64,000 bases of DNA from Patescibacteria group bacterium (GTDB taxonomy: Bacteria > Patescibacteriota > Microgenomatia > UBA12405): NCBI GenBank assembly GCA_013387215.1, contig WARW01000022.1, forward strand, positions 92,612 to 156,611. Direction: 5' to 3'. A program made the translations under genes and the position numbers. Of the stretch, positions 54,474-64,000 are shown piece by piece; positions within the stretch are counted from its first letter, which is position 1, and every line of letters starts with the position of its first letter. The notes below the pieces were generated by a model, which ran no database searches, was not told the origin of the DNA, and saw only the letters and a list, made by a program, of their open reading frames with translations.

Positions 54474-55284
54474 AAATCCTTTATACCTTACCTCAACTTT
54501 ATTGTTGATAGGTGCGGCGATAGTTTTTATAAAACTTAATCCTTCCTTTTTAACAAAAAAATCAGTGCCATATTTTTCAAAAGATATTGGTAAATTTTGT
54601 ATAAATGATTTTTGTTTAAACCAAGAAAATGGCAAGTGGTTCGTTCTCCAAAACAATAAAGAAATTCCCGCAGATGAAGAGATGGTTAAGGCTTACACTG
54701 ATAAGTTTAAAAACATTACTTTAAAGGAATTGATTTCGCAAAACCCAGACAAGTTTTCAACCTTAGGAATCGGTGAATCTAAGGTCGTTTTGGATATTAA
54801 CAATAAAAAACTAGAAATAGGTAATATTACAAATGATACTGATGGAACTTATGTGCGTGAAGATAATGGAAAAGAAGTATATAAAATTAATATAATTTTA
54901 GATAAAAATAATTTACCTAAATCAGATTATTGGCAATTAAGAAATTTAACTAAATTTCCCAAGTCTCAAGTCTTAAAAATTACAGTAAATTTTTCAGGTA
55001 AAACTTTAGAATGGAATCCAGATGGTAAGGGTAATTGGAAAAATGATACTCAAGTAGAAAAATTATTGAATTTGGAAAGGGTAAAATATATTAATGATTT
55101 TAAATATAATACCGATAATTCCTATGAATTCATCATAAATACCGATAGTGGAATTGATAATATAAGCATTGGCAGTTTTGCGATAGACAAAAAGACTAAT
55201 ATATATTGGGCAACGTTAGACAAGCTTAATTATTTTGAAATTAATAAATCTGACTTTGATTTATTGACAGAAAATCTTAAGTAA
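54463..55284 (+). CDS. DUF4340-like protein that follows GldG-type genes
   Basis: Positional conservation. N-terminal TM. ATG at 54463 overlaps the upstream gene end. Confidence 0.45.
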   Translation: MKIKNPLYLTSTLLLIGAAIVFIKLNPSFLTKKSVPYFSKDIGKFCINDFCLNQENGKWFVLQNNKEIPADEEMVKAYTDKFKNITLKELISQNPDKFSTLGIGESKVVLDINNKKLEIGNITNDTDGTYVREDNGKEVYKINIILDKNNLPKSDYWQLRNLTKFPKSQVLKITVNFSGKTLEWNPDGKGNWKNDTQVEKLLNLERVKYINDFKYNTDNSYEFIINTDSGIDNISIGSFAIDKKTNIYWATLDKLNYFEINKSDFDLLTENLK

Positions 55285-60223: not shown

Positions 60224-60856
60224 ATGCTTAAATATGAAACCATAGTATTGGGAGACTTGGGAACTAATTGTTATTTGGTTTGGAACGAAGAAACAAAAGA
60301 ATGTTTTATTATCGATCCAGCAGATGATGGTGTAGGGATTTCAGATATGATAAGTTCCAAAGGCTTAAACCCGGTTGGCATCCTTTTGACTCATGGGCAT
60401 TTTGATCATACCTTGGCCGCTTTGGATTTAAAATTAATTTTTAATATTCCAGTTTATTGCAGTCAACAGGATATATTTTTATTAAAAAGACAAAATCAAA
60501 CAGCAACTCATTTTTTAAAAAGAAGAGTTTTTGCTCCAAACCTAAACAATATTGATATAGACCTTGATGATACAAAAGAAATATTTTTAGGTGATGAAAT
60601 ACTTCAAGTGATTAAAACACCAGGACACACACCTGGCAGTGTTTGTTTTTATAACCGCGAAAATGGACTGCTTTTTAGTGGTGATACTCTTTTTGCCGGT
60701 CTTAGGGGAAGAACTGATTTAAAGTATAGCTCCACCGAAGAAATATTTAAAAGTCTTAAAAATTTAATGAAGCTACCTGACGACACACTAGTTTTGCCGG
60801 GCCACGGAGAGGAAACCACGATTGGACGAGAATCGGAAAGATATATTAAAGATTAA
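60224..60856 (+). CDS. MBL-fold metallo-hydrolase (glyoxalase-II-like)
   Basis: THGHFDHT motif, downstream His (PGHTPG) and Asp/His ligands. Confidence 0.8.
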   Translation: MLKYETIVLGDLGTNCYLVWNEETKECFIIDPADDGVGISDMISSKGLNPVGILLTHGHFDHTLAALDLKLIFNIPVYCSQQDIFLLKRQNQTATHFLKRRVFAPNLNNIDIDLDDTKEIFLGDEILQVIKTPGHTPGSVCFYNRENGLLFSGDTLFAGLRGRTDLKYSSTEEIFKSLKNLMKLPDDTLVLPGHGEETTIGRESERYIKD

Positions 60857-61154
60857 GCTTTATCGTCTTCTTTAAGATTGTGAATAGTTTCGTCGAAGTT
60901 TTTGATATGGTCTTGTTTAATACTTTCCAAAAGTTCAATCAATAAACCATTGATATATGATTTAACGCCCAATGCTTGTTCAGGTGTTAATTTTAATTCT
61001 TGAGTTAATTCTTCTATGGTTTTCATACTTTTTTAACAAAGCAATAATAAATAGAACTGGATATTTATATCATTTATGAGGCAAAAATCCAATTGATCTC
61101 TTATTTTACAAAAATATTAGCTAAAATAGTATAATAGTTCGCAAGCTCACCAAT

Positions 61155-61223
61155 GCCCCGTCGTCTAATGGTAGGACAATCGGCTCTGAACCGGTTAATT
61201 GTGGTTCGAATCCATGCGGGGCA
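61155..61223 (+). tRNA. tRNA-Gln (anticodon CUG)
   Basis: Manual cloverleaf: acceptor GCCCCGT/GCGGGGC, anticodon stem ATCGG/CCGGT, loop CTCTGAA, T-loop TTCGAAT, discriminator A. Confidence 0.8.
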
Positions 61224-61351
61224 ACACAATCCAAATGTTTCATGGTTCGAATCTCCCCTCAAGGGGGATCCTAGACATGCGGGGCAACACAATCCAAATG
61301 TTTTATGGTTCAAATCTCCCCTCAAGGGGGATCCTAGACATGCGGGGCAAC
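61215..61351 (+). repeat. two 63-bp tandem direct repeats plus a partial third, each re-duplicating the tRNA-Gln 3-prime end (GGTTCGAATC…CATGCGGGGCAAC) and containing an embedded TCCCC-TCAA-GGGGA hairpin
   Basis: TGCGGGGCAAC recurs at 61215, 61278 and 61341. Units differ at 2 positions (C/T, G/A). Confidence 0.75.
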
Positions 61352-61369
61352 AAATATTTTTGGTAGAAT

Positions 61370-61831
61370 TTGTTTATGAATATCAAAAGAGCAGCTAGAA
61401 CAGTGATTGTTGATGAAAATAATTTAATCGCTTTAATTGATGTAAGAAATGGCGAGTATTATAAAATTCCTGGAGGAGGCATTGAAGAGGGAGAAACAGA
61501 AATTGAAGCGGCAATGAGAGAAGCTTCTGAGGAAGCCGGATGCGAAATTGTAATCGGCCCTAAGATTGGTGAAAATGAATTTTTAGATAATAATTCGGAA
61601 TACGGAGAAACAGTACATCATTCAGTTTGTTTTTTAGCAAAAAAAGTTGGAGAAAGCAAAAAGACAAGTTTTAATGAATGGGAAAAAAGTAACAATATGA
61701 AATTAATATGGGTAACAGTTCCACAAGCTTTGAAACTTTTTGAAAACGTGAGTACAACTGATGAGTTTGCATCAAAAATTAACGAGAGAGACTACAATTT
61801 TGTTCTTAAGGCTAAAGAGCTGCTGAAATAA
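61370..61831 (+). CDS. NUDIX hydrolase
   Basis: Nudix box GGGIEEGETEIEAAMREASEEAGCE. Confidence 0.75.
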   Translation: MFMNIKRAARTVIVDENNLIALIDVRNGEYYKIPGGGIEEGETEIEAAMREASEEAGCEIVIGPKIGENEFLDNNSEYGETVHHSVCFLAKKVGESKKTSFNEWEKSNNMKLIWVTVPQALKLFENVSTTDEFASKINERDYNFVLKAKELLK

Positions 61832-61863
61832 TATTTTGTTAAATACTAAAGATATAATTAAGG

Positions 61864-62445
61864 ATGAGTTTTGATGAGCAAGATATTTTTGAGAAAAATG
61901 AATTTTTTCAATTAGATTTGCAAAAAGAAATAATAAAATCAAAAGAGTTTGAAAATTGCAAGTTTAGCAAATGCAGTTTTGTAGGGACGGAATTTATAAA
62001 ATGCAGATTTAACGAATGTATGTTTGAAAACTGCATTATGAGTGGAGTTAATTTTAGTGGAAGCAATTTACTAGATTTAGATTTTATTAAATCAAAAGTA
62101 TTAGGAATAGATTGGACAAAAACGTTTAATATAAATTATCTACAATTTAAAGAATGCCAATTAAATTATTCAAATTTCAGATACTTAAAATTATCAAAGT
62201 TAGTAATTACTAATTCCGAGGCAAAAGAAGTCGATTTTATTGGTGCAGAAATTCCAGAAGTAGACTTTAGGGGAAGCAATCTGGAAGGTGCTATTTTTTC
62301 AAAAACAAATCTTTATAAAGCAAATTTCAAAAAAGCTTCAAATTTTTCGATTGATTTTAAAACTAATAATATTAAAAAGGCAAAGTTTTTGCTTGCAGAT
62401 GCAATTAGTTTATTAAGCGGCTTGGATATAATTATTGAAAATTGA
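61864..62445 (+). CDS. pentapeptide-repeat protein
   Basis: Tandem A(D/N)LxF-type pentads (CKFSKCSFVGTEFIKCRFNECMFENCIMSGVNFSGSNL…). Confidence 0.75.
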   Translation: MSFDEQDIFEKNEFFQLDLQKEIIKSKEFENCKFSKCSFVGTEFIKCRFNECMFENCIMSGVNFSGSNLLDLDFIKSKVLGIDWTKTFNINYLQFKECQLNYSNFRYLKLSKLVITNSEAKEVDFIGAEIPEVDFRGSNLEGAIFSKTNLYKANFKKASNFSIDFKTNNIKKAKFLLADAISLLSGLDIIIEN

Positions 62446-62447
62446 AT

Positions 62448-63056
62448 CTAAAGTTTATTAATTAAAATGTTAATTAGATAATTTGCAATTGGATAAATAA
62501 CTTTATTTAAGACTGTATTAAAAGATATAAATAAAATAATTATAAATATCAGTCCATAACGATCCAAAGAAAACCATTTTTGACTTAAAGAATTAGGCAA
62601 CAATCCCCCAACTACTCGAGAACCATCGAGGGGCGGTATGGGAAGTAAATTTAGGATAGCTAAAAAAACATTTATAGTAATTGCAAAAGTTAACATTTGA
62701 TAGGCAATTACGTTTATTTGAAAAAAATGCAGTAATAGCGTGGCCACAAAAGCAATTAAAAGATTGGTTATTGGACCAGCTATGGCAGTGATTGCAAAAT
62801 CTTTTTTAATATTTTTAAATTTTTTAGGATTAATTGGAACTGGTTTGGCTCCACCAAAAATAAAAGGACTGCCGACTAATATAAAAAATAATGGCAGAAG
62901 TATTGTAAAAATGGGATCGATGTGTGGAAGAGGATTTAGAGTTAAACGTCCTGATTTTTGGGCGGTATCGTCTCCAAAGAATTGAGCCACTAAACCGTGA
63001 GACAGTTCATGAAGAATGACGGAATAAATTATTATAATCAAATAGATTAATGTCAT
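62448..63056 (-). CDS. site-2-protease-class (M50) zinc metalloprotease, small membrane form
   Basis: HExxH in a TM helix (ILHELSHGLVAQ). Four or more TM segments. Confidence 0.7.
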   Translation of the reverse strand: MTLIYLIIIIYSVILHELSHGLVAQFFGDDTAQKSGRLTLNPLPHIDPIFTILLPLFFILVGSPFIFGGAKPVPINPKKFKNIKKDFAITAIAGPITNLLIAFVATLLLHFFQINVIAYQMLTFAITINVFLAILNLLPIPPLDGSRVVGGLLPNSLSQKWFSLDRYGLIFIIILFISFNTVLNKVIYPIANYLINILINKL

Positions 63057-64000
63057 TATTTTGCAGATTGCAAAACTACCTGGACAATCATTGTTTTATT
63101 ATTTCTCCAAATTTCTATTGGCACTTTATTCCCTACTTTTTGAAGTAAAATCAAACTACTTAATTCATTAGTACCATCCGAACTTACTGATTGTCCAGCA
63201 AATTTAGTGATAATATCATTAGCTTTTATTCCCGCCATGTTAGCTGGTGAATTAGGCAACACTTCAACGACATATGCACCAGGAACACTACCCATTGAGC
63301 TAGCTTGACTTGAATCTAGAGCAACATATCTGACTCCTAAAAACGGCTGCTGAAAATTTTGACCATTATTTTGAAAGGCATTTATTAAATCCTTGGCCAC
63401 ATTAACAGGTATAGCAAATCCTAAATTTGAACCAGAGACTGAAACGGCTGTGTTAATACCAATAACATTGCCATTGGAATCCAACAATGGTCCGCCAGAA
63501 TTTCCTGGACTTATTGGAGCATCAGTTTGGATGACATTGTTAAGCTGTTCAACTGATCCTAGAAATGGAGTTCCAGCTTTTATTCCACGGCTAACTCCAG
63601 AAATAACACCAGAAGTAACTGTGTTTCTAAACTCACCCAACGGTGTTCCAATAGCAATGGCGGTTTGACCAAGTTGAAGCGATGAAGAGTCGCCTAAAAC
63701 TACAGGTTTTAGTCCAGCTGCATCTATTTTTAATATTGCTAAATCATTTAAAGGATCTTTGTAAATTTTTTTTACATCAAAGGTTTCATTATTATTAGTG
63801 ATAACACTATAATTCCCTGATACGTCTGATACTACATGTTTATTGGTTAAAATTAGCCCGTCGGAAGAAACTATAAATCCCGAGCCGATATTGTTCGAAG
63901 TATTATCGGTTTTAGAAGAAATTGTGACTACCGATGGCAAATTAGATTTGACTGCCGAAGTAATAGCCGATTCTTCTGGATTTGTTATCTTTTCAGTATT
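63056..64000 (-). CDS. HtrA/DegP-family trypsin-like serine protease with PDZ domain (N-terminus beyond window end)
   Basis: Catalytic His (TNKHVV), Asp, and Ser (GNSGGPLLD). C-terminal PDZ. The reading frame stays open through 64000. Confidence 0.85.
   Translation of the reverse strand, partial: NTEKITNPEESAITSAVKSNLPSVVTISSKTDNTSNNIGSGFIVSSDGLILTNKHVVSDVSGNYSVITNNNETFDVKKIYKDPLNDLAILKIDAAGLKPVVLGDSSSLQLGQTAIAIGTPLGEFRNTVTSGVISGVSRGIKAGTPFLGSVEQLNNVIQTDAPISPGNSGGPLLDSNGNVIGINTAVSVSGSNLGFAIPVNVAKDLINAFQNNGQNFQQPFLGVRYVALDSSQASSMGSVPGAYVVEVLPNSPANMAGIKANDIITKFAGQSVSSDGTNELSSLILLQKVGNKVPIEIWRNNKTMIVQVVLQSAK

Follow-up and report, generated by a model that had tools for sequence, protein, structure and literature searches.

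The tRNA-Gln gene and its surroundings

An intact tRNA-Gln(CUG) gene without an encoded CCA occupies positions 61154..61225 on the forward strand of the window, by which the whole 64-kb stretch of DNA analysed here is meant. It is followed directly by two tandem units that each carry pieces of its own 3' end. ARAGORN and the Rfam tRNA model (RF00005; 57.1 bits at a gathering score of 29) agree on the gene, which had also been recognised as an intact tRNA-Gln(CUG) ahead of repeats in an earlier inspection of the letters (the sequence-only reading). The start given there, 61155, has to be corrected to the ARAGORN start at 61154. In front of the gene, a consensus scan finds TTTACA-16-TAGTAT at 61105-61132, within a promoter-like region (TTTACA ... 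TAGTATAAT) that extends over 61105..61135 on the forward strand. The upstream block ttttacaaaaatattagctaaaatagtataat is the same in one related lineage (L001) and nearly the same in another (L002), and the region 61105..61135 may well serve as the promoter of the tRNA gene.

The last repeat copy is followed by a putative trailer of the tRNA gene (AAATATTTTTGG...; 61352..61375, forward strand), assigned by its likeness to the trailers of the lineages L116 and L001. Next come a NUDIX hydrolase gene (61376..61831, forward strand; Pfam PF00293, 47 bits) and a pentapeptide-repeat protein gene (61864..62445, forward strand; Pfam PF13599 and PF00805), the latter with a low G+C content of about 0.25 in the composition profile. 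They are the first and second genes of a lineage-specific variable slot, and the NUDIX gene has no counterpart at the equivalent position in any relative compared. The genes for an M50 peptidase and an HtrA-like protease (62448..63940, reverse strand; Pfam) are core neighbours outside the feature. NUDIX, pentapeptide, M50 and HtrA are the four genes that Pfam assigns in the 2.6 kb downstream, where no integrase or recombinase gene was found.

Two open reading frames in this region are artefacts. The first (61153..61398, forward strand) runs through the tRNA and the repeats and has no Pfam match. Its sole non-self database matches are P0122 and P0123, relatives that align over the tRNA-encoded residues only, and the suspicion of the sequence-only reading that this frame is an artefact of read-through is thereby borne out. 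The second lies on the opposite strand (61101-61325) and has no Pfam match either. In an annotation of the contig, ORF 61153-61398 is to be dropped as spurious and the repeat units are to be labelled as tRNA gene fragments.

Anatomy of the 63-bp repeat array

Tandem Repeats Finder reports a period of 63 bp with 2.2 copies, 97% matches and a score of 266 at 61213-61352. Together with a repeat search it delimits unit 1 at 61226..61288 and unit 2 at 61289..61351 on the forward strand, which are 97% identical and make up an array of 126 bp in total. The two near-identical 63-bp units that had been noticed by inspection are thus seen by both methods. The partial third unit that had been added to them is the tRNA's own 3' end, the register of Tandem Repeats Finder beginning inside the tRNA; past 61351 there is no third unit, only an unrelated trailer.

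Unit 1 opens with an 18-nt spacer (61226-61243), the final base of which is also the first T of the 11-mer that follows. The T-arm piece TGGTTCGAATC (61243-61253) comes next, then the 22-nt insert (61254-61275), and the unit closes with CATGCGGGGCAAC (61276-61288), which copies the tRNA 3' end. In unit 2 the T-arm piece TGGTTCAAATC lies at 61306-61316, the 22-nt insert at 61317-61338 and the 3'-end copy at 61339-61351, all on the forward strand like their counterparts in unit 1. The spacer reads ACAATCCAAATGTTT(C/T)AT and the T-arm piece TGGTTC(G/A)AATC, with the sequence ACAATCCAAATGTTTCATGGTTCGAATC at the junction between the two. Only two positions distinguish the units, a C at 61241 that is a T at 61304 and a G at 61248 that is an A at 61311.

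The likeness to the tRNA gene is seen in the 14-mer CATGCGGGGCAACA, present three times in steps of 63 bp (at 61213, within the tRNA, and at 61276 and 61339), and in the T-arm 11-mer TGGTTCGAATC, present at 61202 in the tRNA, at 61243 and, with one G>A change, at 61306. Removal of the insert leaves a contiguous 24-nt block that reaches from the 5' strand of the T-stem to one base past the discriminator. The 24-nt 3' block of the tRNA is therefore found twice more behind the gene, as looked for in displaced fragments, each time split by the 22-nt insert. Just 50 nt lie between successive 3'-end copies, and the non-tRNA DNA between the gene and the fragment amounts to 18 nt, or to 40 nt if the insert is included. 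The units are devoid of the 5' acceptor strand, the D arm and the anticodon arm; they are called as tRNA neither by ARAGORN nor by Rfam, even at E<=10, and 61154-61225 is the only tRNA detected there.

The hairpin TCCCC-TCAA-GGGGGA lies at 61254..61268 (forward strand) in unit 1 and has its second copy at 61317-61331. A 15-nt hairpin insert had been described in the sequence-only reading, and the 15-nt TCCCCTCAAGGGGGA is indeed present, but it belongs to a longer, 22-nt insertion, TCCCCTCAAGGGGGATCCTAGA, which splits the tRNA-derived block at TGGTTCGAATC^CATGCGGGGCAAC. Hairpin and 3' end together make up a 35-nt string for which 0 occurrences are expected by chance and just two are seen, at 61254 and 61317.

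With this anatomy, it is highly improbable that the array or its copy number is an error in the assembly of this genome from a metagenome. Only one metagenome-assembled contig, of 321,689 bp, was seen as the source, and short-read assemblies are often unreliable on the copy number of tandem repeats, but the array lies in the interior of a long contig, the units differ from each other at the two positions named above, and the 40 nt of unique sequence in each unit must come from real reads. In addition, the k-mer sizes usual in assemblers exceed 13-14 nt, and shared repeats of only 13-14 nt are unlikely to give rise to a cycle in the assembly graph.

Searches for further copies, a donor or an attP site

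No further copy of the unit was found in the 64-kb window when 2-3 mismatches were allowed, and CCCCTNNNGGGG has no occurrence outside the array within the same 64 kb. A donor for the spacer or the insert was detected neither in the window nor at the relatives' loci. Viral contigs gave 0 matches to the unit or an attP, and phage and plasmid collections gave none. The integrase with a matching attP that the sequence-only reading had proposed to look for failed to appear in the window and in the viral, phage and plasmid collections. The single viral match to the 3' block (L120) is the triple tRNA-Gln cluster of an unrelated phage-like contig.

Two wider scans were carried out. In 185,579 species genomes, the pattern GGTTCRAATC-N15-30-CATGCNGGGCAA was matched 15 times, always in coding sequence or in unrelated tRNA flanks and at about the number estimated by hand for chance. 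In metagenome contigs, a search for two CATGCGGGGCAA copies 30-60 nt apart returned 91 stretches, mostly CRISPR arrays that contain the 12-mer by chance (61- and 73-bp periods), or coding or satellite repeats; the only tRNA-linked cases were L035/L039 (tRNA-Gln) and L061 (tRNA-Phe).

Short length and a hairpin are what a generic REP- or MITE-like dispersed repeat, brought next to the tRNA by chance, would also show. Such an element should recur at other sites, a finding that the sequence-only reading had named as fatal to its own interpretation, and no such repeat exists in the window, the relatives or the collections: the window holds no other copy at 2-3 mismatches, the relatives' loci hold none, the species genomes yielded chance matches only, and the metagenome scan, unrelated CRISPR arrays aside, contained no related unit. 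This reading can hardly be credited.

The interior of the unit was also considered as a diverged copy of the trailer and the NUDIX start, with AAAT.TTT..TGGT..GAAT and TCAA-N8-CTAGA as the likenesses spotted by eye, and this candidate was rejected as chance. The local alignment of the unit interior to the trailer scores 16, shuffled sequences score 13.4 +/- 2.7, and 411 of 2000 shuffles were as good. Because the similarity to the trailer is at chance level and no donor was found in the window or in relatives, a plain duplication of native sequence does not account for spacer and insert.

The same locus in related lineages

The MBL-fold hydrolase encoded upstream of the tRNA assigns the window, by its homologues, to Candidatus Shapirobacteria (Microgenomates, candidate phyla radiation); a protein identical to it is found on one NCBI contig of 321,689 bp. 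The locus was compared in seven related Shapirobacteria/Microgenomates lineages (L001, L002, L005, L113, L114, L116 and L119). The identity of the MBL protein to that of the window is 84% in L001, 75% in L002-L004, 74% in L005/L006, 70% in L113, 68% in L114/L115 and 67% in L116; the synteny of L119 is shown via the small ORF (78% identity) and the C-terminus of the MBL protein. The order Obg, RlmN, thioredoxin, Dus, RRM protein, MBL, small ORF and tRNA-Gln(CUG) is kept in all seven lineages. The tRNA stands alone in six of them, and the remaining one, L119, has tRNA-Gln fragments of a different kind. The array is missing in L001, L002-4, L005, L113, L114/115, L116, L118 and L119, and the presence/absence polymorphism at the tRNA that had been put forward as a check of the sequence-only reading is thus real. 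A mismatch-tolerant scan of L002, L005, L113, L114 and L116 revealed no second copy of the tRNA 3' end within 8 kb. Displaced tRNA fragments as borders of the relatives' variable slots were likewise considered, and none was found within this distance.

The trailer AAATATTTTTGG begins like the post-tRNA sequence of L116 (AAATATTGGTCG) and, less clearly, like that of L001 (AAAATTTAATTG). This is a likeness by eye, and a MAFFT alignment paired the trailer with L116 over the first six bases only. As the relatives have no such array and the sequence after its last copy starts in the manner of L116 and, less clearly, of L001, the array is considered, on this comparison of sequences, to be a 126-bp insertion that is specific to the window's lineage and has direct repeats of the tRNA 3' end at its borders.

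The contig of L006 ends inside the tRNA, which was examined as a possible sign of an integrated element. The break is at a variable acceptor-stem base and more probably reflects co-occurring related strains that share tRNA k-mers.

A hypervariable slot with recombinase remnants

Each lineage compared has its own set of genes from the tRNA up to the conserved LytR / M50-HtrA block. The slot is filled by the NUDIX and pentapeptide-repeat proteins in the window, by an HD_4 protein and two hypothetical proteins in L002, by three hypothetical proteins, an NTPase and a patatin in L005, by an ABC transporter in L113, and by a hypothetical protein, HD_3, a beta-CASP protein and UCP014422 in L114. In L116 it is almost empty, and a GIY-YIG ORF lies upstream of the tRNA. 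LytR and KsgA form the next conserved block; in the window and in L002, M50 and HtrA stand in front of it, and in L002/L003 the M50-HtrA pair adjoins LytR in the same order. The proposal that the block downstream of the repeats may be island-associated does not hold for M50 and HtrA, which are core neighbours and not cargo; only the NUDIX and pentapeptide genes fill the variable slot.

Across Shapirobacteria/Microgenomates, the 3' flank of the tRNA-Gln(CUG) that comes behind MBL hydrolase and small ORF is a hot spot of gene content. Since integration targets are, to our knowledge, poorly documented in the reduced genomes of uncultured bacteria of the candidate phyla radiation (CPR), this hot spot could mark a place at which to look for mobile DNA in CPR assemblies.

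Two contigs that were found by searching with the artefactual read-through ORF, L118 and L119, are informative about this site. In L118, a Bro-N gene lies on one side of tRNA-Gln(CUG) and a serine recombinase gene (Resolvase, 39.9 bits) on the other, about 120 nt past the tRNA. In L119, a 12-nt 5' tRNA fragment is duplicated and followed by a small hairpin and then by the intact tRNA; four bases past the latter begins a 5'-truncated second tRNA-Gln copy, which has different stems and a 26-nt hairpin insert in the D loop. L119 also has, 3' of tRNA-Gln, the leader of the recombinase gene seen in L118, a sequence that includes ..TTTTGATATTTTGGCGTAAAATAAAAAGTAG.., but not the gene itself. In L114, a shorter remnant of this leader lies directly 3' of the tRNA, also without the gene. 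Because of the recombinase in L118, the leader remnants in L119 and L114 and the tRNA-Gln fragments in L119, mobile recombinase-associated DNA is taken to land repeatedly 3' of tRNA-Gln in this clade and to leave partial tRNA-Gln copies behind.

A strict tie of the recombinase element to tRNA-Gln was considered and rejected, as L121 (Shapirobacteria) has the leader and the gene without an adjoining tRNA-Gln. Nearly all homologues that databases contain for the recombinase N-terminus are truncated. The cause is probably contig ends, as in L118/L121, and a multi-copy mobile gene would fit this picture. In the window, tblastn detected no homologue of the relatives' serine recombinase, and the leader shared by L114, L118 and L119 was not detectable. 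Viral contigs contained the recombinase neither by protein nor by leader DNA.

Folding of the units and possible RNA function

The unit hairpin folds into a 7-bp stem, AUCUCCC/GGGGGAU, and is followed by TCCTAGACATG. The sequence-only reading had offered terminator elements as an alternative; the hairpin is followed by no T run, and the terminator scan of 60700-62000 did not call the unit hairpins, which speaks against this idea. The units fold no more stably than shuffled sequences (z-scores of -0.24 and -0.75). A structured RNA was given up as a candidate: the fold z-scores are insignificant and three sequences are too few for a covariation analysis. A match of the units to the rtT family (Rfam RF00391) is absent, and at E<=10 Rfam lists just the tRNA and chance lncRNA/snoRNA hits.

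It is conceivable that the units are functional RNA modules, each composed of a hairpin and a copy of the acceptor 3' strand, that are co-transcribed with tRNA-Gln. Placed between tRNA and NUDIX mRNA, they could signal processing or act as insulators, and they could also be the precursor of a small RNA like E. coli rtT; read from the other strand, the array could be a sponge complementary to the tRNA 3' end. Co-transcription is compatible with the scan of 60700-62000, in which no terminator parts tRNA, array and NUDIX. A precedent is available in the E. coli tyrT operon, the repeats of which contain the tRNA 3' end and yield the RttR small RNA (PMC3318445, citing Bosl and Kersten, 1991), and the tRNA-Gln(UUG) of L035, on an unrelated chromosome, is followed by a second 3'-end copy at 63-nt spacing after a similar hairpin. 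Such a function is nevertheless improbable. The array is missing in all close relatives and hence not conserved, the unit folds are not better than those of shuffles, Rfam lists no match of the units at E<=10, rtT included, and the units lack the 5' acceptor strand that a tRNA-like minihelix requires. Moreover, the metagenome scan for pairs of the 12-mer brought up just one other tRNA-Gln case among its 91 matching stretches. If the units were functional, they would represent a counterpart, in a very distant phylum, of what is seen at E. coli tyrT/rttR. More soberly, they probably have no role of their own and are just carried along in a transcript, as part of the tRNA trailer or of the NUDIX leader; the intact tRNA is probably the sole functional product.

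Origin of the array

Site-specific excision is conservative and leaves one att site. The array had been interpreted as the scar of serial integration and excision, and this interpretation has to be abandoned in its original form: a single att site is expected after excision, fragments are normally kilobases away and not 50 nt as here, and the tandem arrangement speaks for local duplication. Because the two 97%-identical units stand in perfect tandem register, they are better explained by a local duplication than by two integrations, and this tandem step would be recent, judged from the few differences between the units.

With moderate confidence, the array is regarded here as a lineage-specific, probably non-functional scar at a recombination hot spot 3' of tRNA-Gln(CUG), generated by mobile DNA or illegitimate recombination and subsequently doubled. 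A regenerated target accompanied by a displaced fragment is a recognised mark of tDNA integration (PMC4383910; PMC9897764), with 9-23 kb between fragment and gene in published examples (PMC9897764). The T loop is used by tRNA-targeting phage integrases, and the attB of Ms6 lies in the T loop of tRNA-Ala (PMC1762012).

In the first of the proposed steps, DNA would enter at the tRNA 3' end by way of a tRNA-targeting mobile element, or by illegitimate or abortive recombination, and would produce a displaced copy of the last 24 nt of the tRNA with about 18 nt of foreign DNA left before the fragment. In the second, the fragment would gain the 22-nt palindromic insertion. In the third, the directly repeated tRNA 3' ends would allow replication slippage or unequal crossing-over, by which the 63-bp unit would be doubled. 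A recombinase or mobile element may have been the maker of the first fragment at this site, insertion presumably preceded doubling, and the resulting array would be without function. As just 18 nt of putative foreign DNA are found beside the tRNA, an almost complete secondary deletion must be assumed. The 22-nt insert is left unexplained by the proposal and counts against the scar reading. The same is true of several negative results given above: no recombinase gene in the 2.6 kb downstream, no homologue of the relatives' serine recombinase and no trace of its leader in the window, no attP-like copy in the viral, phage and plasmid collections, and no tRNA-fragment repeats at the borders of the relatives' variable slots.

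A purely local origin is possible, though rather unlikely. A template switch, slippage or double-strand-break repair would have copied the segment from the T arm to the 3' end, with neither mobile element nor function involved; filler DNA would have become the spacer and the palindromic insert, and the unit would then have been duplicated in tandem. That plain duplication can make tandem tRNA 3' ends is illustrated by the 64-bp units behind the tRNA-Phe of L061, and E. coli tyrT has the 19-nt tRNA-Tyr 3' end six times, 178-bp tandem units included. A recombinase or attP was not found for the window, and the AUC of the T loop is used again in the stem of the insert, as expected from a snap-back event. 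On the other hand, spacer and insert, 40 of the 63 nt, have no detectable local template, whereas the spacer of L061 is its native trailer, and recombinase-associated remnants occupy the same locus in relatives.

Comparison with known systems

The displaced fragments of attL/attR sites, as in the Islander definition (PMC4383910) and in PMC9897764, share several traits with the array. In both, an intact regenerated tRNA is followed by direct repeats of its 3' part that start from the T arm; here the last fragment abuts an L116-/L001-like trailer, and presence/absence among relatives, a hot spot of gene content and recombinase remnants in relatives complete the likeness. The differences concern scale and make-up. 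An integrated element is of kilobase scale, whereas 18 nt (40 with the insert) are found here, and no integrase is present in cis. The search for kilobase-scale foreign DNA between gene and fragment, by which a tDNA island is recognised, returned only the 50 nt between 3'-end copies. In addition, the fragment of the window is split by a 22-nt insert, and its perfect tandem indicates a local duplication.

The serine-recombinase element of L118, with its remnants in L119 and L114, is found at the same tRNA gene, on the same 3' side and in the same clade as the array. L119, like the window, has partial tRNA-Gln copies with hairpin inserts near the intact gene. The gene and leader of this element were, however, undetected in the window, and the unit shares only its tRNA-derived part with the remnants.

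The closest structural precedent is provided by the distal repeats of E. coli tyrT-tyrV, where tandem units likewise come after a tRNA gene and each contain a 3'-terminal segment of the tRNA. The 19-nt tRNA-Tyr 3' end is found there six times, and three of the copies, downstream of tyrV and 178 bp apart, overlap the annotations of tpr and of the small RNA rttR. The two arrays are related neither in sequence nor by Rfam, and the units of the window are 63 bp long without an embedded ORF, in contrast to 178 bp in E. coli. The tyrT repeat is kept in most E. coli genomes compared (PMC3318445), and its small RNA has been detected (Bosl and Kersten, 1991, as cited in PMC3318445). The E. coli repeat thus yields a detected small RNA, whereas the array of the window is limited to one lineage and known here from its sequence alone.

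A plain duplication is exemplified by L061, in which tRNA-Phe is followed by 64-bp tandem units made of the segment from the T loop to CCA and of the gene's own terminator trailer. Period (about 63-64 bp), copy number (two to three) and identity from the T loop through the 3' end are alike in both. A single duplication suffices in L061, the spacer being its own trailer with the terminator hairpin, whereas spacer and insert of the window match nothing local.

In L035/L039, a chromosomal tRNA-Gln(UUG) within a tRNA cluster is followed by a 21-nt 3'-end copy at 63-nt spacing. The copy in L035 is preceded by the hairpin TACCCTTTAGGGTA, which resembles TCCCCTCAAGGGGGA of the window. With so few cases, the 63-nt spacing and the hairpin form shared by L035 and the window are inseparable from coincidence. 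That the units of the window, the L035 unit and the junction hairpin of L119 belong to an undescribed class of small modules, with a T-CCC-N4-GGG-A hairpin and a tRNA-Gln end copy about 63 nt from tRNA-Gln in unrelated bacteria, is very improbable. If it were true, a CPR serine recombinase directed at tRNA-Gln might recognise the modules or recombine at them; alternatively, they might be co-transcribed mimics of the tRNA 3' half, used as decoys or as signals for processing.

The main value of the finding lies in annotation and in the understanding of genome plasticity in CPR bacteria. The array belongs with the tRNA 3'-fragment repeats and scars at tDNA hot spots, a kind of arrangement that is already known.

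Rearrangement of the tRNA-Gln locus and a serine recombinase leader

A rearranged tRNA-Gln(CUG) locus was found in the related lineage L119 (L119:330-640; ENA ERZ28613979, scaffold_81420), in a region syntenic with positions 60700-61400 of the window. Here the intact tRNA-Gln(CUG) (396-467) is preceded by a 12-nt duplicate of the tRNA 5' end (TGCTCTGTCGTC) and the hairpin TCCCTAAAGGGA. Only 4 bases past the intact tRNA begins a second, 5'-truncated tRNA-Gln copy, which differs in the anticodon and acceptor stems and holds a 26-nt hairpin insert in its D loop. This truncated copy is followed by the leader of a recombinase gene without the gene itself.

The same conserved leader (CCGTCATTTTGATATTTTGGCGTAAAATAAAAAGTAGAAACGCAAAAATTTTATG; L119:~620-690) stands ahead of a serine recombinase gene in the related contigs L118 (~990-1046) and L121 (5920-6003), and persists immediately past the 3' end of tRNA-Gln, with the recombinase gene missing, in L119 and in the syntenic lineage L114 (8906-8975). 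In L118 (L118:2-1250; ENA ERZ15184940, NODE_82947), tRNA-Gln(CUG) lies between a minus-strand Bro-N domain gene and the serine recombinase gene, which starts about 120 nt past the tRNA, encodes a Resolvase N-terminal domain (39.9 bits) and is cut off by the contig end. This arrangement looks like a mobile element that adjoins or carries tRNA-Gln. In the databases, almost every homologue of the recombinase N-terminus is truncated as well, a pattern that fits an assembly-breaking, multi-copy element.

Variation in the tRNA and its surroundings

At the base of the T stem of the tRNA-Gln (UGUGG/CCAUG; window 61198-61217) are two G-U wobble pairs, both of which are kept in five related lineages (L001, L002, L005, L114 and L119). 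In L113, L116 and L118 the 3' strand reads CCAUA and one Watson-Crick pair is regained. The repeat units of the window have CAUGG, which would result in perfect T-stem pairing, and a tRNA-Gln with the T stem that the units would give occurs on a viral contig (L120:1333-1405).

In L116, and in none of the other relatives, an 80-aa ORF with a GIY-YIG domain (L116:8901-9143; 68.6 bits) is placed between the conserved small ORF and tRNA-Gln, adjoining the tRNA 5' end. This ORF could represent a free-standing nuclease or a further sign of locus plasticity. The 186-kb contig of L006, a lineage grouped with L005, stops within the T arm and acceptor of tRNA-Gln (…GGTTCGAATCCATGC; L006:5948-6011; Logan SRR9964840_5382). 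The break point is a base that varies between lineages, and the contig end therefore more probably marks a strain-level break in the assembly than an integrated element.

Downstream of tRNA-Gln in the window, the pentapeptide-repeat gene has a G+C content of 0.25-0.26 versus about 0.33-0.37 in its flanks (window 61750-62500). This is compatible with recent acquisition, although not unique, because positions 54750-55249 are equally low in G+C.

Tandem tRNA 3'-end copies in metagenomes

In the metagenome matches L022 and L024, as at about 60 further loci, the 12-mer CATGCGGGGCAA forms part of CRISPR repeats; one example, from human-gut assemblies, is CGGATCATCCCCGCGCATGCGGGGCAAAC with a period of 61 bp, and other assemblies have an array with a 73-bp period. 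These loci were rejected as unrelated to the tRNA-Gln array.

A tRNA-Gln(UUG) with a second 3'-end copy is located in a chromosomal tRNA cluster (Phe, Gly, Val, Leu, Gln, Pro) of two metagenome contigs (L035:2602-2740 and L039; JGI Ga0334900_1005096 and Ga0334899_1004593). AATCCATGCGGGGCAACATTT recurs 3' of this tRNA at a spacing of exactly 63 nt, and the second copy is preceded by the hairpin TACCCTTTAGGGTA, similar to the window hairpin TCCCCTCAAGGGGGA; the likeness could reflect either coincidence or a shared mechanism. An independent case of tandem tRNA 3'-end duplication is the minus-strand tRNA-Phe of L061 (540-780; JGI Ga0154020_10136460), which came to light only because its terminator contains CATGCGGGGCAA. 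Two more 64-bp tandem copies, the last one degenerate, follow this tRNA, each comprising the T-loop-to-CCA segment and the terminator hairpin.
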